The notes beneath the pieces were generated by a model. That model did no database searches. It had not been told where the DNA came from and was given only the letters and a program-made list of their open reading frames with translations. Positions 7,009-20,090 of a stretch of DNA of 56,237 nucleotides are shown piece by piece. Position 1 is the stretch's first letter; every line of letters starts with the position of its first letter. Source of the DNA: Atribacterota bacterium (GTDB taxonomy: Bacteria; Atribacterota; Phoenicimicrobiia; Phoenicimicrobiales; Stramentimicrobiaceae); the NCBI GenBank assembly GCA_040767965.1, contig JAXGNR010000012.1:1-56237 (forward strand), in the 5' to 3' direction. A program made the position numbers and the translations under genes.

Positions 7009-8880
7009 ATGTCAATAAAAATTGAAATAAATAATATACCGGTAGAAGTGGAAAAAGGAACAACTATTTTAAAGGCAGCAAAAGAAATTGGAATTAAAAT
7101 TCCCACTTTATGCTATTTGGAAGGTCTGCAAAACCCCGGATCTTGTCGCCTATGTCTGGTTGAAGTAGAAGGTGCAAACAACTTACTCCCTTCCTGCATA
7201 ACCGAAGTAGCTGAAGGCATGAAAATCAAGACAAATAGCAAAAGGGTCAGGCAGGCTAGAAAAATAGTATTGGAATTACTTTTAAGCTCTCATCCCTGGG
7301 AATGTAATACCTGTGATAGAAATCAGGATTGTGAATTGCAAACTTTAGCTGAAGAATATGGTATCAGAGAAGTGAGATTTCAGTCTTATAAAGTAAAATT
7401 ACCCTTAGATACCAGTACCCCGGGTATTGTCAGGGATCCCAATAAATGTATCCTGTGCCGGCGCTGTGTTACTGTCTGTCAGGAAGTACAAAAAGTATCC
7501 ACACTAGGACCTCGTTATCGCGGAATCAAAACAATCATTGGTCCTGGACAGGTTGATTTTTTATCAGATGCAGTGTGTGTACAATGCGGACAATGTGCTG
7601 CTGTCTGCCCGGTAGGCGCTATCAGTGAATGTGATGACACTGAAAAGGTATGGAATGCTATTGAAGATCCCCAAAAATATGTAGTAGTACAGACAGCTCC
7701 TTCTATCAGGGCAGCTCTGGGAGAATGTTTTGGCTTACAGCCAGGTACCCTGGTTAAAGGACGTATGGTTACTGCTTTAAGAAGATTGGGCTTTGATCAG
7801 GTTTTTGACACCAACTTCGCGGCTGATCTTACTATAATAGAAGAAGGACATGAACTACTGTCTCGCTTAAAGAAAAAATTAGTTGAAAAAGATGAAAATA
7901 CAAAACTTCCCATGTTTACTTCCTGCTCTCCGGGTTGGATAAATTATATGGAAAATTTTTATCCTGAATTAATTGATAATATTTCTACCTGTAAGTCACC
8001 ACAACAAATGTTTGGCGCTATAGCCAAAACCTATTTTGCCGATAAAATCGGTAAGAAAAAAGAGGATATGGTAGTGGTATCTATCATGCCCTGCACTGCC
8101 AAAAAGTTTGAATGTAATCGAGATGAAATGACCGATAGTGGAGTACAGGATGTGGATTATGTTCTGACTACCAGGGAATTGGGTAAGATGATTAAACGGG
8201 CAGGAATTGATTTTGTTAATTTGCCGGATGGGGAGATGGATGCCCCGTTAGGTATTTCAACAGGTGCAGCAGATATTTTTGCTAACACTGGTGGAGTTAT
8301 GGAAGCTGCCCTGCGAACTGCTTATGAAACAGTAACCGGGAGAAACTTACCTTTTGATAGATTACACATAACCCCGGTTCAGGGATTAGAAGGAGTTAAG
8401 GAAGCCCAGCTAACCATAAAAGATACATTACCAGAATGGAATTTTTTAGAAGGTGTAACATTAAAGGTAGCAGTTGCTCATGGCCTTGGAAATGCCAATA
8501 AAATAATTGAAGCTACCTCAAAAGGGGAAAAAGAATATCATTTTGTTGAAATAATGACCTGCCCGGGCGGTTGTATCGGAGGAGGAGGCCAGCCTCGTTT
8601 GACTACCGATGAAGTCAGAAAAGCCAGGATTCAGGCAATATATAAAGAAGATGAGGGTCGGGAGCTCAGAAAATCCCATGAAAATCCAGCTATTAAACAG
8701 CTGTATGATGAGTTCCTGGGAAAACCGCTGGGAGAAAAATCACATCACCTTCTTCATACGAAATATTTTGATAAGAAAAATAAAAAAGAGAAACAGGAAG
8801 ATAGAAAAATTCAAATTAGTTCACAAACAAAAAAAACAACTGTAAAGAAAAGAGATAAAGAATGCAGCATACGAACATAA
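7009..8880 (+). CDS. hydA: [FeFe]-hydrogenase group A catalytic subunit (2Fe-2S, His-ligated 4Fe-4S, 2x4Fe-4S, H-cluster)
   Basis: H-cluster motifs TSCSPGW, MPCTAKKFE, EIMTCPGGCIGGGGQP; HPWECNTC and CxxCxxCxxxC motifs. Confidence 0.95.
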   Translation: MSIKIEINNIPVEVEKGTTILKAAKEIGIKIPTLCYLEGLQNPGSCRLCLVEVEGANNLLPSCITEVAEGMKIKTNSKRVRQARKIVLELLLSSHPWECNTCDRNQDCELQTLAEEYGIREVRFQSYKVKLPLDTSTPGIVRDPNKCILCRRCVTVCQEVQKVSTLGPRYRGIKTIIGPGQVDFLSDAVCVQCGQCAAVCPVGAISECDDTEKVWNAIEDPQKYVVVQTAPSIRAALGECFGLQPGTLVKGRMVTALRRLGFDQVFDTNFAADLTIIEEGHELLSRLKKKLVEKDENTKLPMFTSCSPGWINYMENFYPELIDNISTCKSPQQMFGAIAKTYFADKIGKKKEDMVVVSIMPCTAKKFECNRDEMTDSGVQDVDYVLTTRELGKMIKRAGIDFVNLPDGEMDAPLGISTGAADIFANTGGVMEAALRTAYETVTGRNLPFDRLHITPVQGLEGVKEAQLTIKDTLPEWNFLEGVTLKVAVAHGLGNANKIIEATSKGEKEYHFVEIMTCPGGCIGGGGQPRLTTDEVRKARIQAIYKEDEGRELRKSHENPAIKQLYDEFLGKPLGEKSHHLLHTKYFDKKNKKEKQEDRKIQISSQTKKTTVKKRDKECSIRT

Positions 8881-10178: not shown

Positions 10179-11269
10179 TTATACATCCCCTTTTCTCAAG
10201 CGCATTCCTTCACCGCTTAATATCTTTTCTATATATTCATCTGTTAAATCCCATTCATAAAAGCTGGAATAAAAATATTTTACTTCTTCCTGCATACTGA
10301 TATCTTCAAACAAATCCGGATATAGCAGTTTGGCTACACATAAAATTGCTAGAGGTGTTTCCAGGGCATTAGTGGGATGACCCCACCGGGATACCCCATT
10401 GGGCATTTTATAAACTCTTTCATTTTTTACTGCCTGCAAATCAGCCCATTGTTCATTGGTAAGAATATATTTATCTACATTCTCTTCATTGACAATAATG
10501 ACTTCTGCATCCCAGAGTAATATTTGTTCTAAACTGGCAAAGTATTTATTTTCTAAAAACTTTAAATCTGTATCCAGGAAACATTGTGGGCTCCGGCAAT
10601 TTCCAGCCATTCAGCTGCCCGGGTACCCCTAGCGTCAGTCCTGGTTGCCTCGTTAACTGAATGATATACGGTAACTCTGTCTGAAAAAGGTATTTCCTTA
10701 ATTTTTTCCTGTACTCTTTCTATGCAATAATTATAATAATCAATATATTGTCTGGCTTCTTCAACCTCACCAAGGGCTTTGCCTATCATTTCCATAGAAA
10801 ACTGGTGCTCGGCAATAGATCCATAATCAATGACCAGATAGGGAATATCAAATTGCTCTATCTGGGCAACATAGGCTTCGCTAACCGCATTTTCTCCCTG
10901 GATAAACAGAATATCACAGTCGGCCCTGGCCAGCTCTTCAATGTTAATGACACTACTTTTACTGGGGACTAAGGCATCCTTAATATTTGGAAACATTTCT
11001 GTAAAGAGAACATCTCTTTTCAGTCCATCTACGATTGCCACAATGTCAGGTCCCCGGTTCAGTAAGGCAACAGCATGGCCGGAATAGGCAAATAGGCAAC
11101 CGATTCGCTCTATTTCTTCTGGATTAGGCACTTCTACTTCTCTATCAAAACAATCAATAACAATATTCTTTTCTGTAATTGCAGTCTCATCTGCTATAAT
11201 TGTTATGCTAAATGCAAATAATATACAAAAAATCATACTGAAAAAGATAATGAAATTTCTTTTAAACAT
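10179..11269 (-). CDS. Type II (Fe-siderophore/B12-class) ABC substrate-binding protein, split by one frameshift near 10576
   Basis: Signal peptide, DCFDREVEVP..IERI, INIEEL, SLEQILLWDAEVII, W..LQAVKNERVY; two overlapping ORFs are joined by restoring one C. Confidence 0.85.
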
Positions 11270-12092
11270 ATACTAAAGACTCCTTTTCTGAAATTTTTAT
11301 AGGGATGATATATTTCTGCTTTTTTAGATCATCCAAATCATAATCAATAATTTTGCATTCTATTTTAAATATTTTACTAATATTCTCTTTAGTCAACACC
11401 TCTCCAGGCCGTCCATAGATGGCAAATTTTTTTTCATTAAGCATGGCAGTAAAAGTTGTTAATCCATTATTCTCAAAATAAAAAGCATGATTCAGGTAAT
11501 GAGTTGCCAGAATAATAGATAAATTCTTTTTTTTGGCTAACTGCCTGGTTACCTCCAGAACAGTTAAACTGTTCTGGAAATCCAGATAAGTTGTGGGCTC
11601 ATCCATAATCATAATTTTTGATTGCTGAGCCAGTGCTCTGGCTATCATAACCAGCTGTCCTTCCCCACCGCTTAATTCAGTATATGGCCTGTGCATTAAA
11701 TGCTTTATACCTACAGTCTCAATGGCTTCATGAGAGGTTGAAACATCCTCTCTACCAGGAGACCCGAACATTCCAATATGGGAAGCTCTTCCCATTAGAA
11801 CAATTTCCTCAACTGTATATGGAAATGTTTTTTTATGTATTTGAGGGACATAAGCAATTGTTCGGGCAATTTCTCTTGCTTTTAGATAATTGATATTTTT
11901 CCCCTGTAATAATATTTCACCTTTTTTCAATGGGAAAATCCCCATAATGCAATCCAGGAGTGTTGTTTTTCCTGAACCATTAGGCCCTATCAGGCATATA
12001 ACTTCTCCGGCTTCCATCTGGAAATTAATATTTTCCAGAACATTGTGACGGCCATAACCAAAACCAGCTTCTTTTACTTCTAATAAAGACAT
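11262..12092 (-). CDS. ABC transporter ATPase, FecE/BtuD family
   Basis: GPNGSGKTT, LSGGE, MDEPTTYLD. Confidence 0.9.
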   Translation of the reverse strand: MSLLEVKEAGFGYGRHNVLENINFQMEAGEVICLIGPNGSGKTTLLDCIMGIFPLKKGEILLQGKNINYLKAREIARTIAYVPQIHKKTFPYTVEEIVLMGRASHIGMFGSPGREDVSTSHEAIETVGIKHLMHRPYTELSGGEGQLVMIARALAQQSKIMIMDEPTTYLDFQNSLTVLEVTRQLAKKKNLSIILATHYLNHAFYFENNGLTTFTAMLNEKKFAIYGRPGEVLTKENISKIFKIECKIIDYDLDDLKKQKYIIPIKISEKESLVYV

Positions 12093-12096
12093 CCTA

Positions 12097-13134
12097 CTAC
12101 CATCCCTTTCCCTTGGTCTTTTTTAAAAGATAGACAAAGAAGGGTCCGCCGATTAAGGCAGTAAGTATTCCCAGGGGTATTTCAGCCCCAATCAAAGTAC
12201 GACTTAAATTGTCCACCACAATCATAAAGAAAGCTCCCAGAAAAAAGCTGGCTGGAATAAGAATACGGTTATCATTACCGACCATCATCCGACCAATATG
12301 AGGCATAACTAAACCCACCCAGCCGATATTACCACTGACGCTAATCGCTCCAGCAGTAGCCAGCGAAGCACATAAAACCATAATAATTTTCGTCAGGATA
12401 TTATTAATGCCCAGTGCCTGGGCTTCTTTATCCCCCATTGACAGGACATTAATCTGCCAGCGCAGGGCAATTAATCCGAGAACACCAATAGAAATGGGTA
12501 TAATAGAAAAGTAGATATCTTGATACTGGGCAGTAGCCAGACTACCCATCAGCCAGAAGGTAATTGATGGTAATTTTTCAAAAGGGTCTGCTACAAATTT
12601 TGCAAAAGAAACCAGGGCAGAAAATATTGAAGACACAACCACACCACCTAACACCAGTGTAATTGTTGGAGTGGAATGGTAAATCTGTCCAATAAAAAAG
12701 CTCATTGCTACTGCTAACAAGGCAAAACCAAAGGCATAAAAATAAACCATATAATTCTGACCATATAGAATAATTGCCAGCACTGCACCAAAACTTGCTC
12801 CGGAGCTGACTCCCAAAATACCTGAACTTACCAAAGGATTCCGAAATAATCCCTGAAAGGCAGCCCCGCTAATAGCCAGGCTGCCTCCTACCATTGCACC
12901 CAGAATAGCCCTGGGCAATCTTATTTTCCAGACCACAGTGTTATAAATATTCGGAAAATCCTGATTAACCTGAGGATTAACAGTTACTCTGAATACAGCC
13001 ATGATGTCAGCCCAAGTCAAGGGATACCTGCCTATAAAAAGTGAGAAAAAAATCCCGATAAAAGGTAAAATGATAATTAATATCAGGAGAACACTATTCT
13101 TTTTTAATTTTAAAGCAGAAAAAATTTTTTGCAT
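12097..13134 (-). CDS. FecCD/BtuC-family ABC permease
   Basis: IRLPRAILGAMVGGSLAISGAAFQGLFRNPL, GNIGWVGLVMPH, EIPLGILTALIGGPFF. Confidence 0.92.
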   Translation of the reverse strand: MQKIFSALKLKKNSVLLILIIILPFIGIFFSLFIGRYPLTWADIMAVFRVTVNPQVNQDFPNIYNTVVWKIRLPRAILGAMVGGSLAISGAAFQGLFRNPLVSSGILGVSSGASFGAVLAIILYGQNYMVYFYAFGFALLAVAMSFFIGQIYHSTPTITLVLGGVVVSSIFSALVSFAKFVADPFEKLPSITFWLMGSLATAQYQDIYFSIIPISIGVLGLIALRWQINVLSMGDKEAQALGINNILTKIIMVLCASLATAGAISVSGNIGWVGLVMPHIGRMMVGNDNRILIPASFFLGAFFMIVVDNLSRTLIGAEIPLGILTALIGGPFFVYLLKKTKGKGW

Positions 13135-13166
13135 CTACATTCCGGTAATCATAATTTTGTTCAAAA

Positions 13167-13640
13167 TTATTTTATTGCCCCTAAGGCCATAAATTCCAAT
13201 ATCAGTTCTTCACCTAATTTTTCACCGCTTTTTGATTCTAATTCAGGAAAAATAATAATCTGGTAAGTCTTTAAAGATTCTATACCTTCTTTTATAATCA
13301 GGGTAATATTATTTCTCTTTTCTCTTTCAATCTGGTCATCAGCCATTTCAATTTCTACAGCTACTTCACTACCGCCTTCTTTGTTAATAACCTTGAAGCA
13401 TTGACTATTATTTTCACTGACTTCCATGTTAACTACATTCTTGCTGAAAGTGAATTCAATAACAATGTTTCTTTGTCCTTCATCATTTAATTCATCAGTC
13501 ATACGAAATGCTTCCAAAACCAGAGGATTCTTTCCACTGTCCTGTGCCATAGCAGAAATAGTTCCTAAGGTAAACACAACAACCAGAATAACAGCCAAAA
13601 TTAAATTTGATTTTTTTATACTCTGTAAATTTAAAAACAT
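13167..13640 (-). CDS. Secreted Ig-like (Big_5/SbsA-type) domain protein
   Basis: Signal peptide ending AMA; FTFSKNVVN...DDQI...KSGEKLG beta-rich pattern; GGAGG RBS before ATG 13640. Confidence 0.6.
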   Translation of the reverse strand: MFLNLQSIKKSNLILAVILVVVFTLGTISAMAQDSGKNPLVLEAFRMTDELNDEGQRNIVIEFTFSKNVVNMEVSENNSQCFKVINKEGGSEVAVEIEMADDQIEREKRNNITLIIKEGIESLKTYQIIIFPELESKSGEKLGEELILEFMALGAIK

Positions 13641-13670
13641 AAAAACCTCCAAATATTTTTTTGATTAAAA

Positions 13671-13702
13671 TAAAAAATCCTGTACTTTTCCCCGTACAGG
13701 AT
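13671..13702 (-). terminator. Riboswitch expression-platform intrinsic terminator
   Basis: ATCCTGTAC-ggggaaaa-GTACAGGAT followed by a U-tract, between the aptamer and the first gene. Confidence 0.8.
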
Positions 13703-13710
13703 ATAATTAT

Positions 13711-13803
13711 CTCTTCTTTCCAAACACGGGGGGCTCAGCAATTTCTCACTAAACCTGATGGTTAGCTTTCATGGAAAACCTTTAGAAAAACTAACTCGAA
13801 GAA
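13711..13803 (-). ncRNA. Moco/Wco riboswitch (Moco RNA motif), P3-lacking variant
   Basis: Minus strand CTTCGA-GTTAGTTTT-TCTAAA..CATGA-AAGCTAAC-CATC-AGGTTTAGTGA GAAA TTGCTGAGCC-CCCCGTGTTTGGAAAGAAGAG: GAAA tetraloop, receptor-like motif, conserved CCCGTRTTTGGAAAG, no P3. Confidence 0.85.
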
Positions 13804-13833
13804 AATTGTACAGTATTTAATTTAATAAAAGTT

Positions 13834-13962: not shown

Positions 13963-15054
13963 TTATTTTTCAATAACTATACTGGCTAATGATTGAGGAA
14001 GATTGTTTGAAAAATCCACAACTGGTGGATTTATGACTACCTGTCCGGTATTTTCCATTATTCTCTGGCCCTGGGGACTAAGAATGAATTCCATCAGTCT
14101 GATTGCCTCTTGTGGATTTGGGGCATTATTGGGAATTGTTATTCCGTAGATAATAGGTAAAATGTCATAATCCGGATTGACTGATAAAAACCTTTTAAAA
14201 GCAAGTTTGACTTTCATATTCGAGCATAATGCTTTAAATTCCTCAGAACCCAGATTTATCTCCGGTGGAAACTCCAGAAAATTAACCTCATGCTGCCGGG
14301 CAACACTTTTGTATTCAAAACCATAATCCAGATCACCTGACTGAATAGGAAAAAGTAATTTGATACTGGAATCCCGGATGGCAAGTCTCTCCGCTTCCAA
14401 AATTTCCGGAATTAGAATTGTGTAGCTGTCTTCATTTTTTTCCACCTTAATAGGATACGAGAATCTTCCAATTACATTATGCAGTAAATCTTTTTCCTGA
14501 TAAAAAATTTCTGCTAATTTTAAAGCCATCAATGACCTGTAGCCACAGGCATCAAATCGTGGATCTGAAATTCCAACTTTTACCTCTGGTCTGGAAAGAA
14601 TTTGATACCAATTATCGGTATTGATCTCATCATTGTATTTGCTTTGGGAAGTGTAAGCTAATCCCAGAATGTTTGTTCCAAACTGAATACACCAGCTGGC
14701 ATAAGGTTGCTGGCTTTCCGGAATCATTGTTTCGTACATCAGTTTTGGAATCAACGAATAGTCAGCTACTGCAACAATATCTGCAATAGGCTCTCCTGAA
14801 AAAGCTGGTAATTCGATTACATGCCGGATAACCTGAATACTGCCATGCCCTTCAACCAGGACATCAATCCCTGGATTTTCTGCCTCAAAGGCCTTTTCTA
14901 TAGCCCCAAAAGGAACTAACAAACTTCCGGCTGCCTGGATTTTCACAGATATCTTTTCCTGGTCCTGGCAAAAACCAGATAAAAATAGGCTGATTATCAG
15001 TATAATTAAGCAAGCTCCAAAGACTGTTTTCCTTAACAGTTTTATGGTCATCAT
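13963..15054 (-). CDS. wtpA: Tungstate/molybdate ABC substrate-binding protein, WtpA class
   Basis: AAGSLLVPF..E..F, EGHGSIQVIR, AVADY, SDPRFDACGYRS, FEYKSVA, IIYGITIP. Confidence 0.85.
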   Translation of the reverse strand: MMTIKLLRKTVFGACLIILIISLFLSGFCQDQEKISVKIQAAGSLLVPFGAIEKAFEAENPGIDVLVEGHGSIQVIRHVIELPAFSGEPIADIVAVADYSLIPKLMYETMIPESQQPYASWCIQFGTNILGLAYTSQSKYNDEINTDNWYQILSRPEVKVGISDPRFDACGYRSLMALKLAEIFYQEKDLLHNVIGRFSYPIKVEKNEDSYTILIPEILEAERLAIRDSSIKLLFPIQSGDLDYGFEYKSVARQHEVNFLEFPPEINLGSEEFKALCSNMKVKLAFKRFLSVNPDYDILPIIYGITIPNNAPNPQEAIRLMEFILSPQGQRIMENTGQVVINPPVVDFSNNLPQSLASIVIEK

Positions 15055-15102
15055 TCCTCTCCTGTTAAATAGAGAATTTTAAAAAGTTTTGGCTATTTGC
15101 CT

Positions 15103-16077
15103 TTAGGGAAAAATAACTTTAATTTCTTTTATTTGACCTACCTGCTCTTTCCCGGTTAAACCATCTCCTACCAACCTTAATGGCCAGGAATTTTCCGGTA
15201 AAGATTCTCCGTCTAGTTTATATGCCACAATGATATTATTCCTTCGGGCAATAGATGAGATTGGAAGTGTTGCACTAAATCCGTCTTCAGCAATAATTTC
15301 TACTTCATATCCGTCCTGGACCAATGAATCATTAAAGGCTTTTCCTTCATGAGGATTATCATCATCTACCCGTCCTACCAGTAGCCACAGGGGAATTCCT
15401 TCCCATTCTCTACCTTTATCATCAACATATCTGGTACCATGACAACCTTCGGCTGAACCAGATTCAAAAGTAGCCCGATCAATATTTTCATCCCGTGCAC
15501 CTTTCAACTGTAAAACCCAATCCTTAGGAGCAGGAACCAGCTCTATCTGTTCAACCCACTTACTCCACCAGTGACCGTCTGTTACCTGATTCTTCTCACT
15601 AAGAATAGCCAGTCTTAGGGGACCACCCAGCTCAAAGGTCATTGCTTCTCCATCAGTCATATAAGCCAGAATCATATGCAAATCACCATGGGGCACTTCA
15701 TTTAACGAAACAGGGTCATAGGTAATAAAATCATTTTCGGTTACTTGTTTATAACTGAAAGTCATGGCATAACCGTCTCTGGAAATGATTTTAACAGCTG
15801 TATCAGGGTTAATGCCTCCGACCATATCGCATATTTCCAGAACAGATACTCCTTTTAGTTCAAAAGGACCCTCAATAGCACCGGTGCTGCGCATTCTACC
15901 TCCCCAGCCTTCTAAAGCAGGTAAATCCATAATTTCCTCCAGAGTTAATGTTTTTACTGTATCACCGGATGTTATTTTCAGGGCAACATCTTCCTGAGCT
16001 GCCAAAACATTGCCTATTGTTAATGATAGCCCAAATATGACCAGAAAAATTATTGTTTTTAATTTATTAATCTTCAA
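15103..16077 (-). CDS. Secreted protein with two molybdopterin-binding (sulfite oxidase/MsrP-like) domains
   Basis: Duplicated pattern KGVSV..DGY..ILAY..DG..GPLRL..KWVEQI / WEGIPL..DGF..IVAY..DG..PLRLV..QIKEI; Sec-type signal peptide, no RR motif. Confidence 0.7.
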   Translation of the reverse strand: MKINKLKTIIFLVIFGLSLTIGNVLAAQEDVALKITSGDTVKTLTLEEIMDLPALEGWGGRMRSTGAIEGPFELKGVSVLEICDMVGGINPDTAVKIISRDGYAMTFSYKQVTENDFITYDPVSLNEVPHGDLHMILAYMTDGEAMTFELGGPLRLAILSEKNQVTDGHWWSKWVEQIELVPAPKDWVLQLKGARDENIDRATFESGSAEGCHGTRYVDDKGREWEGIPLWLLVGRVDDDNPHEGKAFNDSLVQDGYEVEIIAEDGFSATLPISSIARRNNIIVAYKLDGESLPENSWPLRLVGDGLTGKEQVGQIKEIKVIFP

Positions 16078-16161: not shown

Positions 16162-16965
16162 TTATATGTTTTCATTTCTCATGATTAAAATTCTTAATAT
16201 AATAAAGATAATAAGTGAAATCATTACTCCCAGGGCAGCTATAGGGCGGGCATAGAAAAGTCCAAAATTAAAGCGGTCAGATACCAAGACCGGCAATGTC
16301 TTTCCACTCTTCCCTAAAAAAGATACATTATAAGCAATGATCATTACTGCACCAAACTCACTTACACCTCTTCCCCACATAAGAATACAGCCGGAATAAA
16401 TGCTTTTTAAGGCTAAAGGAAGAGATATATACCAGAATACCTGCCAGTGTGAAGCGCCATAAGTATAGGCGGTTTCTTCCAGTTCAATATCTATTGACTT
16501 AAAACCTTCCTTAACTGAATCAATCAAAAAAGGAATACTTACAAACATCATTGCCAGGACAACTCCATAGAATGTCTGGAAAAATTCAATTCCGAAAAAA
16601 CTAAAAACTCTCCCCAGGAAATAATTACGGCCAAAAACAAACAAGAGAGCTATGCCGGCTGCAGAATGGGGAATAACAATGGGAATATCAATAACGGCTT
16701 CCAGTATCCCTTTACCAAAAAAATTGTGTCTGGCTAGCAGATAAGCCAATGGTATCCCCAGTAAAAATCCCAACATTGTTGCAAGCAGTGCTGCAATCAA
16801 TGTTAAACAGATAGAGTGATTCACTTCTGGATCTTTTACTGTATTACACAATACAGATAATGGAGTATAAAAAATTGTTTTTAATGGTGGAAGAAGTATA
16901 AACAGGATTGTCATGATACCAATTAAAATAAAGATTAGATAGAACAAATCAACATTTTTTCTCAT
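16162..16965 (-). CDS. wtpB: Tungstate/molybdate ABC permease (WtpB/ModB)
   Basis: PLAYLLAR..F.GK, IDIPIVIPHSAAGIAL, EETAYTYGAS, RGVSEFGA. Confidence 0.85.
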   Translation of the reverse strand: MRKNVDLFYLIFILIGIMTILFILLPPLKTIFYTPLSVLCNTVKDPEVNHSICLTLIAALLATMLGFLLGIPLAYLLARHNFFGKGILEAVIDIPIVIPHSAAGIALLFVFGRNYFLGRVFSFFGIEFFQTFYGVVLAMMFVSIPFLIDSVKEGFKSIDIELEETAYTYGASHWQVFWYISLPLALKSIYSGCILMWGRGVSEFGAVMIIAYNVSFLGKSGKTLPVLVSDRFNFGLFYARPIAALGVMISLIIFIILRILIMRNENI

Positions 16966-17097: not shown

Positions 17098-17119
17098 CCC
17101 TATATTTAAATTTCATCTT

Positions 17120-17233
17120 TCTCTCCTTTCCAAATACGGGAGGTTTAAACATTTCTATTTAAACCCTTAAGACTTTTGAGGTCTTGCGTTTACCGGTCAT
17201 AGAAAACCCTTAGGCCAGGTAAATCGAAGAGAC
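17120..17233 (-). ncRNA. Moco riboswitch (Moco RNA motif), P3-containing variant
   Basis: Minus strand CTCTTCGA-TTTACCTGG-CCTAAG..TATGA-CCGGTAAA-cgc-AAGAC ctcaaaa GTCTT (P3)-GGTTTAAATA GAAA TGTTTAAACC-TCCCGTATTTGGAAAGGAGAG. Confidence 0.9.
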
Positions 17234-17284
17234 TTATTTATAAATTATAAAAATTCTATTTCCCTGTTAAAAGTAATTTAATTT

Positions 17285-17503
17285 TTAGTCATCCACTGCT
17301 ATCATAACATTGCTGGCCTTAACAACAGCATATACCTCTTTCCCTATTTCCAGTCCCAGATTATTAACAGATGATTTGGTGATTACAGAGGTTATTTCCA
17401 TTCCGTTAGGCAGTTCAACGATAATTTCATCATTAACTGCTCCTTCTTTAATCTCTTTTACAATACCTTTAAGCATATTTCTAGCACTTATCTTCATTTT
17501 CAT
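17285..17503 (-). CDS. mop: Molbindin / Mop (TOBE) molybdate-binding protein
   Basis: KISARNMLKG..SVIT..S..LGL..G..AVVKASNV. Confidence 0.92.
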   Translation of the reverse strand: MKMKISARNMLKGIVKEIKEGAVNDEIIVELPNGMEITSVITKSSVNNLGLEIGKEVYAVVKASNVMIAVDD

Positions 17504-17621: not shown

Positions 17622-18431
17622 TTAAATACGCAATAGAAGATTCCCAAAAAAAAGAAAGAGCAATAATACCCCTACTTCATTTAGTTCATTAACCGCTCCT
17701 ATAATGTCACCACAAATACCCTGTATCTTTGCAAAAGAATAAAAGATTAACAGATAAGTAATAATTGCTGAAAATACCAGAAAGTAAAATGTGAAATATG
17801 ATAATAGATAAAAGCTGCATATCACAGCAAAGAAAGTAGCTATCAATAACTCTTTCCCTCCCAAATATATAGTGAACATGCGCGATAAAGAGTTATCAGC
17901 AGAGGCAGGTTTCCCTGAATAGCCAGCCAGCACCATTGACCATCTTCCAATAACCGGAGCCAATAGCAATGCTTCTGATTTATAAGCAGCAGGTAAATTG
18001 TTTATTAACAGCAGTTTTAAAATAATCAACAAGATTAAGCCAATGGCTCCCTTTGCCCCTATAGCCCCATCTTTCATTATACGGATAATCTCCTGCTGGT
18101 TTTTGCCACCGGAGAATCCATCTACCATATCAGCAAAACCCTCCAGGTGCAGTCCTCCGCTTAAAAAGATCCAGATTGCAAGAATAATTCCATTGACTAA
18201 CAAAATATCAAAGTGAGTAAATCCAAGTAAATAATTTACACCCACCAGAATAAAACCAATAAAAATACCAACTATCGGAAAAAATACACTGGATTTTGAT
18301 AAATCCTCTTTTATATAATCCTGTTCTTGTTTTGGCTGCTCCTTATTAGGAGTGGAAAATAAAAAGCTAACAGGCAAGACTGTTAAAAAAGAAAAGGCCA
18401 GAAGAAACCTTCTACACAAGTTTTTCATCAT
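17622..18431 (-). CDS. cobS: Adenosylcobinamide-GDP ribazoletransferase (cobalamin synthase)
   Basis: GGLHLEGFADMVDG, IMKD..IGAKG, GICGDIIGA. Confidence 0.92.
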   Translation of the reverse strand: MMKNLCRRFLLAFSFLTVLPVSFLFSTPNKEQPKQEQDYIKEDLSKSSVFFPIVGIFIGFILVGVNYLLGFTHFDILLVNGIILAIWIFLSGGLHLEGFADMVDGFSGGKNQQEIIRIMKDGAIGAKGAIGLILLIILKLLLINNLPAAYKSEALLLAPVIGRWSMVLAGYSGKPASADNSLSRMFTIYLGGKELLIATFFAVICSFYLLSYFTFYFLVFSAIITYLLIFYSFAKIQGICGDIIGAVNELNEVGVLLLFLFFGNLLLRI

Positions 18432-18987
18432 TATTCCCTTTAATTAAAATCGGAATACCGGCCACCATCAGATATACTTTAGCAGAATTGGCTGCAATAA
18501 ATTGATTAGCTTTACCTAAGGTATCACGGAAAAAACGCCCCAGCGGATTTACAGGAACTAATCCCAACCCTACTTCATTTGATACAATAATTAATGTAGC
18601 TGAACTTTTTAATGATTGGTTGATAATTCCTTCTACCTGCATCATAATGTTTTCATTTATTTCCTGGTTTTCTGAACCTTCCTGATAGTTGGTCATAAGA
18701 TTAGAGACCAAAAGAGTGAGGCAATCAAGTAATATCACATCTACCTGTTGACTAATTTTCTTAATAATTGGGAGAATATTATAGGGTTCCTCATATGTTT
18801 GCCAATCGGTAGGGCGGTGAGCGCGATGCTTGTTTATCCTCTCATGCATCTCTTTATCTAAAGCCTGTGCAGTGGCAATAAAGGCAACCTTTCCACCATT
18901 GTCGCGAGCTATTTTTTCTGCAAAAGAGCTTTTCCCACTGCGAACTCCTCCGGTAATCAGAATTATATTTTTATTTGAATAAATCAT
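18412..18987 (-). CDS. cobU: Adenosylcobinamide kinase/guanylyltransferase
   Basis: GGVRSGKSSFAE, EMHERI..HR..R, LLDCLTL, VSNEVGLG..P, FRDTLG. Confidence 0.95.
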   Translation of the reverse strand: MIYSNKNIILITGGVRSGKSSFAEKIARDNGGKVAFIATAQALDKEMHERINKHRAHRPTDWQTYEEPYNILPIIKKISQQVDVILLDCLTLLVSNLMTNYQEGSENQEINENIMMQVEGIINQSLKSSATLIIVSNEVGLGLVPVNPLGRFFRDTLGKANQFIAANSAKVYLMVAGIPILIKGNNDEKLV

Positions 18988-19028
18988 TCTTTTTCCTGCT
19001 GATAATACAAATAATAGTTAAGTAACTG

Positions 19029-20090
19029 CTATTCTTTTAAATCATCAAATGTGGCCATTTTGTTAAGTAGCTTAAATCCTGTTTCAATAAAATTCATACC
19101 ATAAACAGCCCCGGTGCCTTCACCTAAATGCATTTTTAAATCAAAAATCGGTCTTTTCTGCAGATAAGATAAAGCAACAAGATGTCCCTTTTCCTTTGAA
19201 CAATGACTGGCAAACAGATAATCTTTTACTATGGGAACAAGGTGCACTGCCAGTAAGGCGCAGGCTCCTGATATTAAACCATCCATTACCACAGGCACTC
19301 TTCTGGCTGCCGCAGCCAGTATGCAACCGACCAGTCCTCCTATCTCAAATCCACCTACTTTGGCCAGAACATCCATTGGATCTTTGGGGTTTGGCTGATT
19401 TACAGTAATTGCTTTCTTGATTATAGCGGTTTTATGCTCAACTTCTTCAGGAGCAAGTCCGGTACCCATGTCTACTGTATCTTCAATTTTTGCTCCAGTT
19501 AAGAGACTGATAATAGCACTGCTGGCAGTGGTATTACCTATACCCATTTCACCTAATCCAATCAGGTTAATTTCCTGACAGGCATAGCTTTCTTCAAAGA
19601 CCTCATAACCGGTTAGAATAGATTTCTCAGCCATTTCAGGAGTCATAGCAGGACCGTTAACCATATTAAAAGTGCCATGAGCAATTTTCCTTTTATTTAA
19701 TCCTTTTAATTCTTTGATGTCTGCAAATTCCCCCTTAACACCAATATCTGTAATGGCTACCTCTATACCGAAATGTTCAGTTAAGATATTTATGGCAGCA
19801 CCGCCATTTAAAAAATTTAAAACCATCTGGCGGGTAATTTCAGCAGGATAAGCACTGATTTTTTCAACTGTTACTCCATGATCGGCTGCCATTAAAAAAA
19901 CTACTTTTCTCTTTAAAGGTGGATTTACTGTTCCATAAACTCCGGCTGCCAGGGCAATTATTTTCTCTAATTCGCCCAGGCTCTTGGCAGGTTTGGTTAA
20001 ATTATCAAATTTTTTTATAGTTATCTCTTCTAAATCTTTATTAACTGGCATAATTTTTTGAATTATTTTTTCAATTTTCTTATTTCTCAA
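19029..20090 (-). CDS. cobT: Nicotinate-nucleotide-DMB phosphoribosyltransferase
   Basis: LTKPAKSLG, AADHGV, GEMGIGNTT, LGEGTGA. Confidence 0.95.
   Translation of the reverse strand: MRNKKIEKIIQKIMPVNKDLEEITIKKFDNLTKPAKSLGELEKIIALAAGVYGTVNPPLKRKVVFLMAADHGVTVEKISAYPAEITRQMVLNFLNGGAAINILTEHFGIEVAITDIGVKGEFADIKELKGLNKRKIAHGTFNMVNGPAMTPEMAEKSILTGYEVFEESYACQEINLIGLGEMGIGNTTASSAIISLLTGAKIEDTVDMGTGLAPEEVEHKTAIIKKAITVNQPNPKDPMDVLAKVGGFEIGGLVGCILAAAARRVPVVMDGLISGACALLAVHLVPIVKDYLFASHCSKEKGHLVALSYLQKRPIFDLKMHLGEGTGAVYGMNFIETGFKLLNKMATFDDLKE

Follow-up and report, generated by a model that had tools for sequence, protein, structure and literature searches.

What is a protein with the fold of the sulfite oxidases doing inside an operon for tungstate uptake? 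The question is raised by a gene, here called X, in a 56,237-nucleotide stretch from an Atribacterota bacterium (the window; contig JAXGNR010000012.1 of assembly GCA_040767965.1). A first-pass annotation had placed X within the wtpB-wtpA operon and had read its product as two sulfite oxidase (SUOX)-like repeats acting as a scavenger or carrier; identification of the flanking genes with NCBIfam and Pfam bears out this position. The fold, the type of export, the synteny, the fusion to WtpA, the riboswitch and the Glu-less WtpA described below are established, and it is very probable that X is a Sec-exported, cofactor-less protein of the SUOX fold and a functional member of Wtp uptake operons controlled by a molybdenum cofactor (Moco) riboswitch. 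Taken together, the synteny, the fusion, the shared Moco riboswitch and a complex prediction indicate that X is a companion of the tungstate/molybdate-binding protein WtpA, and that its most likely place of action is the tungstate site, on or together with WtpA.

Linkage of X to Wtp uptake genes

The coordinates of X, its neighbours and the other features discussed are collected in Table 1. The window WtpA matches structurally characterised homologues with E values of 5e-47 to 7e-72 overall (7e-72 for PDB entry 3cfz and 7e-67 for 2onk). Synteny was compared across 75 X loci, with one genome per species. Among loci with 600 or more bases of flank downstream, wtpA lies directly 3' of X in 61 of 65; one of the four exceptions, L008, instead encodes a WtpA fusion protein just upstream. 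In locus L060, which the ORF assignment left out of this count, X is fused to WtpA: a single open reading frame (ORF) of 729 amino acids (L060:5956-8145) joins both domains of X, here termed A and B, to a WtpA that scores above the TIGR03730 cut-off. When whole loci were searched by phmmer with the window neighbours as queries, WtpA was found in 65 of the 75 and WtpB in 56.

The usual gene order is X-wtpA-wtpB-ATPase, while Atribacterota loci have wtpB-X-wtpA with no adjoining ATPase gene. In the window and in the Atribacterota relatives wtpC does not adjoin wtpB, and no wtpC above cut-off is found anywhere in the genome (2.33 Mb in 30 contigs, 98% complete). X loci occur in at least six phyla, among them Atribacterota, Chloroflexota, Actinomycetota, Hadarchaeota, Bipolaricaulota (Acetothermia) and one Planctomycetota genome, and each strong X match in the phylum sample adjoins a WtpA. 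Genes that recur near X elsewhere include those for MoaC (six loci), MoaD/ThiS (five loci) and a GntR plus PBP_like regulator (ten loci).

Two riboswitches of the Moco/tungsten-cofactor family RF01055 frame the locus, one with P3 present heading wtpB-X-wtpA and one with P3 deleted heading the genes of a type-II ABC importer; variants without P3 are associated with tungsten-cofactor metabolism in the available text of Regulski et al. (PMC2408646). Among 11 relatives sampled across phyla, RF01055 was found upstream of the X operon in seven (L003, L008, L016, L025, L038, L060 and L070) and was not found there in L021, L024, L031 and L047. Genome-wide there are six RF01055 sites, one of them below the gathering score, and those outside the window head a TupABC-like operon and MoeA/MoaA genes. 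The former, a TupA/TupB/ATPase-TOBE operon at G000:C4:321688-324585 (L101), lies behind its own Moco riboswitch. With this Tup operon, the Wtp cluster and at least six intact genes for tungstoenzymes of the AOR family, the organism is heavily invested in tungsten.

Two truncated SUOX domains

The product of X has PF00174 (Oxidored_molyb) as its sole Pfam domain, matched in two stretches (54.7 bits; cut-off 24), and X is the sole PF00174 gene of the genome. Its halves also align with one another (BLASTP E 2e-4; profile-profile comparison 95.6% probability, E 1e-8). Relatives are numerous: a word-index search returned 589 at E<=1e-3, and an exhaustive search 956 representatives at E<=1e-3 and 638 at E<=1e-10. 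Parts of X (15284-15565 and 15644-15794) and the X/wtpA junction (14989-15139) are matched identically by contigs from three metatranscriptome libraries; since RNA libraries may contain DNA, these contigs are no proof of transcription, and the uncovered parts are uninformative.

A search of the PDB by sequence gave only marginal matches for the whole of X (E 0.28), and profiles of the separate domains did little better. The fold was therefore approached through models. An AlphaFold2 model built on 53 homologues (predicted local distance difference test score, pLDDT, 88; predicted template modelling score 0.60) places the best match of domain A in PruR (7kom: Z 15.8, root-mean-square deviation 2.3 A, 127 of 134 residues), followed among PruR structures by 7kp2 (Z 15.7) and the neopterin complex 7rkb (Z 14.3); sulfite oxidase, SoxC and SorA are near-equal at Z of about 15. 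Domain B, modelled alone (pLDDT 94) and compared with 48,161 representative chains, matches SoxC (Z 16.3), SorA (15.1), PruR 7kp2 (15.1, 119 of 138 residues) and residues 149-311 of chicken sulfite oxidase (Z 12.9), the next unrelated fold following at Z 5.4. Because of these matches to PruR and to the enzymes, both domains can be regarded as truncated SUOX folds of PruR size. The two repeats of the first-pass annotation are thus recovered in the Pfam matches, in the alignment of the halves and in the fold of each half on its own.

The invariant residues differ between the domains. In domain A these are Ser64, Gly66, the D101-G-Y103 motif and T-D-G-H169-W-W-x-K-W, and in domain B Cys212-His213, Asp238-Asp239, His243 and W-P-L-R301. 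They are of polar pocket types (Ser, Asp, Tyr, His, Lys, Trp and Cys-His) and form no hydrophobic patch. The hairpin of domain A (residues 54-78), where a molybdenum-ligating Cys might be looked for, has none, and the equivalent region is variable across the family (W/M/V/P/Y/Q). In domain B the Cys212-His213 pair, within a G-C-H-G motif, is invariant in 53 of 53 sequences, and Cys212 falls roughly at the position of the molybdenum ligand, as judged from aligned ranges without superposition of coordinates. The first-pass annotation had described both points, and the second stays as approximate as it was put there.

The pocket of domain A and its resemblance to PruR

PruR is described in the accessible parts of PMC11194511 as a Sec-exported, truncated SUOX fold without the molybdenum-ligating Cys, whose shortened pocket fits a small pterin and not Moco; the pterin is held by a stacking Tyr and Trp and a pterin-bonding Asn, and a P-W motif takes the place of the Cys. 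This raises the possibility that X is a pterin-responsive modulator, in which domain A would bind free pterin, either excreted or derived from the cofactor, and only the liganded form would bind WtpA, so that a pterin signal from outside the cell would tune the uptake of tungstate. The nearest solved structures of domain A are indeed those of PruR, and a profile alignment to the Agrobacterium protein sets the invariant Tyr103 of X on the stacking Tyr and the invariant Asp101 on the pterin-bonding Asn (PMC11194511, available text). Judged from aligned ranges rather than by residue mapping, a Trp cluster (170, 171 and 174) is located close to where PruR has its second stacking Trp. PruR also sets a precedent in that a SUOX fold exported through Sec binds a partner domain in the periplasm depending on its ligand, and the contact with WtpA predicted below would use exactly the pocket face.

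Against this, the P-W motif is absent from X and position 58 is variable across the X family. Neither a pteridine reductase nor a partner of the DcpA type turned up in the 75 X loci, their recurrent neighbour clusters contained no GGDEF/EAL partner, and the Moco riboswitch together with the fusions to WtpA and TupA-like proteins points to metal supply over signalling. We therefore regard pterin-dependent modulation as unlikely, and favour an accessory role for X in oxyanion uptake.

Export route and the question of enzymatic activity

X starts with a TTG codon 7 nt 3' of an AGGAGG sequence. As read from the translation, its signal peptide has a Lys-rich N-terminus, a hydrophobic core and L-A-A ahead of Gln28, and Arg-Arg is absent, as the first-pass annotation had stated; the model shows a helix at residues 3-24 and low pLDDT at 21-28, with cleavage predicted after L-A-A. 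When the family was screened with a crude regular expression, RR-like strings turned up in three of 99 locus ORFs and six of 263 database proteins, none of them a good Tat consensus; a lipobox is present in 61 of the 99 locus ORFs. Tat-dependent export, which the first-pass annotation had set against its own view, was also looked for at the level of the genome. Neither TatC nor TatA had a match in this 98%-complete assembly, in searches that were positive in 11 of 14 control genomes.

Extracytoplasmic molybdoenzymes of the SUOX family are exported through Tat with their cofactor already loaded. Since there is no match to TatC or TatA and Sec or lipoprotein signals are found family-wide, folded export of a Moco-loaded X can be ruled out in this organism. 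It would follow the Sec route unfolded, would be lipid-anchored in many species, and would fold without molybdopterin.

It could nevertheless be argued that X is a true extracytoplasmic molybdenum or tungsten enzyme, MsrP-like or sulfite-oxidising, which sits in a transporter operon incidentally or perhaps acts on molybdenum or tungsten species. PF00174 is matched above its cut-off, Cys212 of domain B is invariant and roughly in place, and relatives of X are labelled in public databases as 'DMSO/TMAO reductase YedYZ catalytic subunit' or 'molybdopterin-dependent oxidoreductase', the Protein Atlas clusters giving the generic 'Oxidoreductase molybdopterin binding domain' alone. This view has to contend with the lack of matches to Tat components and with enzyme equivalog models of NCBIfam that reach only 20-29 bits against cut-offs of 420-600. 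Nor was a redox partner found: PF01794 (MsrQ) has no match in the genome, in keeping with the first-pass annotation, and no MsrQ, haem or other redox domain occurs in the genome or the X loci. Both domains are moreover of PruR size, a form that, in the available text of PMC11194511, cannot accommodate Moco. The truncation of both domains and the absence of a redox partner make an oxidoreductase unlikely and a binding or carrier role the better reading. With no Tat match either, the carrier-type interpretation of the first-pass annotation is partly supported, the capture of Moco or metal outside the cytoplasm being conjectural, and that X is itself a molybdenum or tungsten enzyme seems to us highly improbable. 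Uptake of the whole cofactor through the oxyanion permease WtpB is also unlikely. It follows from the same reading that the enzyme labels on relatives of X are probably wrong, and that hundreds of proteins called 'molybdopterin-dependent oxidoreductase' or 'YedY' are probably non-enzymes that inflate counts of the molybdoproteome.

Tungsten ligands of the linked WtpA proteins

In WtpA of Pyrococcus furiosus, Asp160 and Glu218 are direct ligands of tungsten, according to the part of Hagen's review that is accessible (PMC10221389). Mapping through 3cg1 (constant offset 28) takes Asp160 to Asp168 of the window WtpA and Glu218 to Ser230. In 48 X-linked WtpAs the Asp160 column is Asp throughout (48 of 48), while the Glu218 column never contains Glu, being Ser in 39, His in three, Asp in three, Asn in two and Ala in one. 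As these WtpAs lack the second tungsten-binding carboxylate, it is possible that X supplies a ligand.

Covariation between the two proteins was examined in 55 loci, the best domain A of each locus being paired with its WtpA and a quick WtpA tree being used. At X-169 and WtpA-230 the pairs are H/S in 46 loci, H/H in three, H/N in two, H/A in one, Q/D in two and L/D in one. Asp at WtpA-230 is thus seen solely in the three loci whose canonical X has no His169, which on the quick tree represent two independent events.

Predicted complex of X and WtpA

The complex was predicted from WtpA residues 31-362 and X residues 29-324, each with its own unpaired alignment, in three runs and with three controls. 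The interface score ipSAE was 0.62 (0.61, 0.64 and 0.62 in the three runs), the best of the three controls reaching 0.00. Among solved complexes 116 of 157 attain this mark, and among mismatched pairs two of 215; both counts apply only roughly here because unpaired alignments were used. The runs share at least 93% of contacts and the pLDDT of the partners is at least 87. The model supports binding of X to WtpA without demonstrating it. To our knowledge, no structure has been solved in which a SUOX fold is bound to a binding protein.

In the predicted interface, all confident contacts made by X lie in domain A (62-66, 94, 101-104, 106-108, 110, 120, 124-127, 167-169, 183 and 185-186). Invariant residues make up eight of the 25 predicted contacts as compared with 32 of the 271 residues elsewhere (odds ratio 3.5, one-sided Fisher p 0.01). 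On the side of WtpA the predicted contacts (43, 46, 68-71, 167-168, 217-218 and 227-232) ring the ligand cleft and include neighbours of the conserved A-G-S and G-S loops, Phe167-Asp168, Glu217 and Arg227-Lys232. The loop Asp167-Gly-His169 of X and its Ser64 are set by the model against WtpA residues 227-229 and 167.

Fusions, domain arrays and a possible surface role

SUOX-like domains are attached to binding proteins beyond the X-WtpA fusion of L060, which is the sole fusion of X itself. A third type of domain, of about 110 amino acids, has D-G-Y and W-V-K motifs and a conserved Cys pair and is not recognised as type A or B by our own hidden Markov models. It is found at the C-terminus of WtpA-type proteins just 5' of X (L008, L011, L014, L019 and L023) and of TupA-like proteins in L045 and L064 (NF041772, 254 and 243 bits, cut-off 400). 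The same domain occurs on a Peripla_BP_2 protein, an ABC_cobalt membrane protein and an SLH protein, and beside X as single-domain lipoprotein ORFs (L040, L052, L062, L056, L060, L067 and L012).

By our own profiles the architectures among relatives of X are AB (186), ABB (53), A (29), ABA (18), BBBAB (11), ABBBAB (9) and rarer forms. Representatives some 650-820 amino acids long were considered as candidate WtpA-X fusions and rejected: none of 20 carried a binding-protein domain, and they proved to be A/B repeat arrays, some with SLH, CARDB or dockerin domains. Giant proteins among the database representatives (P0123-P0220) reach 3139 amino acids and up to nine matched A/B stretches, again in some cases with SLH, CARDB or dockerin.

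These arrays could suggest that the domains are generic surface scaffolds, that is, ligand-free envelope or protein-binding modules which would hold binding proteins at the surface of monoderm or archaeal envelopes with no metal chemistry of their own. The repeat proteins, the fusions to Peripla_BP_2, ABC_cobalt and SLH partners and the frequent lipobox would all be expected of such modules. The linkage of X is, however, specific to tungsten and molybdenum binding proteins, as the position of wtpA and the TupA-like fusions indicate, and it comes with a Moco riboswitch. In addition, the invariant residues are those of a polar pocket with no hydrophobic patch, and the predicted contact is at the ligand cleft. 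A scaffold without metal chemistry is for these reasons improbable in our view, and an accessory to WtpA remains the preferred reading of X.

A proposed role for X at the WtpA cleft

We consider it somewhat more probable than not that X is a non-catalytic extracytoplasmic accessory whose domain A docks on the cleft of WtpA and which assists in the capture or hand-over of oxyanion. X would be made when the tungsten or molybdenum cofactor is scarce, as suggested by the riboswitch. Once outside the cytoplasm, domain A would place the face of the former cofactor pocket (Ser64, Asp101-Gly-Tyr103 and Asp167-Gly-His169) over the mouth of the WtpA cleft. The contact and its interface are predicted; that the docked domain helps to capture, hold or hand over the oxyanion, and that X may donate a ligand, we infer. 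Domain B, with its invariant Cys-His pair, may serve as a second putative binding module.

A more specific and tentative possibility is a composite tungstate site. In Wtp systems of this subclass, WtpA may have given up its second carboxylate (Glu218 to Ser), and the loop Asp167-Gly-His169 of X, inserted into the cleft, may complete or gate the coordination of tungsten or hand it over. The Cys-His domain B, multiplied in the giant surface proteins, could then be an antenna that preconcentrates oxyanions, possibly including thio-species in sulfidic habitats. If this were true, the ligand site of an ABC binding protein would be shared with an accessory protein, and the Moco fold would have found a second life in the handling of bare metal.

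Several observations weigh against a role of X at the WtpA cleft, or against parts of it. X is patchy in its own phylum, being found in 11 of 81 sampled genomes (two of the matches weak) as compared with 22 of 81 for the WtpA family, so that Wtp function cannot in general depend on it. Within this phylum, WtpA-like proteins unlinked to X also have Ser at the Glu218 column, with a Glu two residues on, so that the loss of Glu218 is no distinguishing mark of the X-linked WtpAs. Only two events underlie the covariation, and three loci have His at both positions. The score of the complex is a model's confidence, and conserved residues are not over-represented among the WtpA contacts (six of 33 against 33 of 299, p 0.17). 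As the cleft face of a binding protein also docks the permease, a stable complex with X would block delivery; it follows that the contact is transient or that the predicted pose is wrong. Finally, the giant A/B repeat proteins would also fit a general surface-binding module.

In the portions of the literature available, molybdenum and tungsten uptake is described in terms of three-component ABC systems (ModABC, TupABC and WtpABC), and a conserved fourth extracytoplasmic component would change that picture for the tungsten-dependent anaerobes that are dominant in sediments, digesters and landfills. The pairing of X with WtpA (His169/Asp167 against Ser230) also bears on tungstate selectivity and very high affinity. 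SUOX folds without a cofactor, recently recognised in PruR, would in this way be extended from signalling to metal acquisition.

Other features of the window

Table 1. Positions, strands and supporting evidence for features at the X locus and for third-domain fusions elsewhere (prefix, locus of origin; all other positions are those of the window)
Feature	Position	Strand	Basis or remark
Gene X, tandem SUOX-fold protein, 324 aa	15103..16077	-	ORF list and translation; stop codon included
Signal peptide of X, Sec type, residues 1-27	15997..16077	-	read from translation and model
Domain A of X, truncated SUOX/PruR-like, residues 30-184 (27-183 in the fold comparison)	15526..15990	-	VIA-align and invariant columns; predicted WtpA-docking face
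Domain B of X, second truncated SUOX fold, residues 185-324	15106..15525	-	model (pLDDT 94), fold comparison and invariant columns
wtpA, class III tungstate/molybdate-binding protein	13963..15054	-	TIGR03730, 291.5 bits (cut-off 242.75)
wtpB-like ABC permease	16162..16965	-	PF00528; best NCBIfam model WtpB, 257.6 bits, below cut-off 340
RF01055 riboswitch, P3 present, heading wtpB-X-wtpA	17107..17241	-	78.4 bits (gathering score 36)
RF01055 riboswitch, P3 deleted, heading type-II ABC importer genes	13697..13813	-	62.5 bits; P3 columns absent in alignment
Mop/TOBE molbindin-type protein, 72 aa, 5' of riboswitch	17285..17503	-	PF03459, 64.5 bits; TIGR00638, 81.9 bits
Riboswitch-controlled downstream cluster	10179..13652	-	Pfam; conserved in 4 Atribacterota loci
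161-aa secreted protein of the cluster	13167-13652	-	
FecCD permease of the cluster	12097-13134	-	Pfam
ABC ATPase of the cluster	11262-12092	-	Pfam
Split Peripla_BP_2 of the cluster	10562-11269 and 10179-10610	-	Pfam
Third-domain fusions, WtpA-type	L008:4448-5908, L011:2322-3713, L014:4393-5991, L019:4522-5997, L023:4446-5822		
Third-domain fusions, TupA-like	L045:4288-5688, L064:1525-2895		
Further third-domain fusions (Peripla_BP_2/ABC_cobalt set)	L027:1-1734, L069:4841-5959		

The cluster downstream of wtpA encodes a type-II (BtuCD-like) importer, which its P3-less riboswitch places in the molybdenum/tungsten cofactor regulon. It could be an oxyanion importer of the MolBC type, for which there is precedent, or an importer of something larger. 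Its Peripla_BP_2 gene is split into two overlapping ORFs covering Pfam profile positions 45-169 and 183-233, while a relative (L003:10817-11908) is intact at 363 amino acids, and the split may be a frameshift, a pseudogene or an assembly error. A Big_5-like Ig domain in the 161-residue secreted protein is a language-model lead only. A second pairing of a WtpA-like protein with a type-II importer is found elsewhere in the same genome, where the gene for a 436-residue protein matching the N-terminal lobe of WtpA alone (G000:C9:76764-78074, minus strand; L104:2465-3775), preceded by an RF01055 match below threshold (33.8 bits), adjoins those for a Peripla_BP_2 protein and a BtuC-like permease.

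Directly 5' of the Mop gene are the cobalamin lower-ligand genes cobS, cobU and cobT (17622-20090, minus strand). A gene for an [FeFe]-hydrogenase large subunit is located at 7009-8880 on the plus strand. The 4.6 kb between 2419 and 7008 have no ORF longer than 87 amino acids on either strand and an ordinary GC content (0.33), and no tandem repeats, notable direct repeats or Rfam family were found in them.

Comparison with known systems

In the full-text literature searched, subscription papers and supplements aside, no description was found of a SUOX-like protein that is linked to WtpA or TupA or fused with either. The available parts of a comparative molybdenum genomics paper that lists new domain fusions (PMC6147048), and of PMC4725937, likewise describe no such link.

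The closest relatives of X in design are the PruR proteins of Agrobacterium, Vibrio and Klebsiella (7kos, 7kom, 7kp2 and 7rkb). These too are Sec-exported, cofactor-less, truncated SUOX folds of about 135-150 residues (Z 14-16, root-mean-square deviation 2.1-2.8 against X) and share the pocket Tyr. PruR acts by binding an extracytoplasmic partner domain from the next gene, as the available text of PMC11194511 has it, and X likewise adjoins wtpA. Unlike PruR, X has two or more tandem domains, no P-W motif, an invariant Cys-His pair in domain B and Moco riboswitch control. Its predicted partner is the binding protein WtpA, in contrast to the cyclase/phosphodiesterase DcpA. The two also differ in distribution, PruR belonging to Proteobacteria and X to Atribacterota, Chloroflexota, Actinomycetota and archaea.

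With the SUOX molybdoenzymes (sulfite oxidase, SorA, SoxC and MsrP/YedY), X has in common the Moco-core fold, PF00174, the D-G-Y and (W/V)-K-W motifs and, in domain B, a Cys near the molybdenum-ligand position. It differs from them in being truncated, in having no Tat export, no dimerisation domain and no haem or MsrQ partner, and in the absence of the Cys from domain A.

A similar concept is embodied by ZinT, an auxiliary protein of the periplasm that binds zinc and docks on ZnuA, the binding protein for this metal. As proposed here for X, it is an extracytoplasmic helper acting on a cognate ABC binding protein in the recruitment of metal under scarcity, although the folds are unrelated and ZinT handles a cation rather than an oxyanion.

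The window WtpA is homologous to the binding proteins of WtpABC from Pyrococcus furiosus and of the ModA/WtpA system from Archaeoglobus fulgidus (3cg1 and 2onk), and keeps the Asp160-type ligand. The available portions of PMC5517513 and PMC10221389 describe the archaeal model Wtp operons as three-component systems and mention no accessory. The operon described here departs from these models in that a fourth, secreted component is intercalated among the transport genes and in that the Glu218-type ligand has been replaced by Ser.

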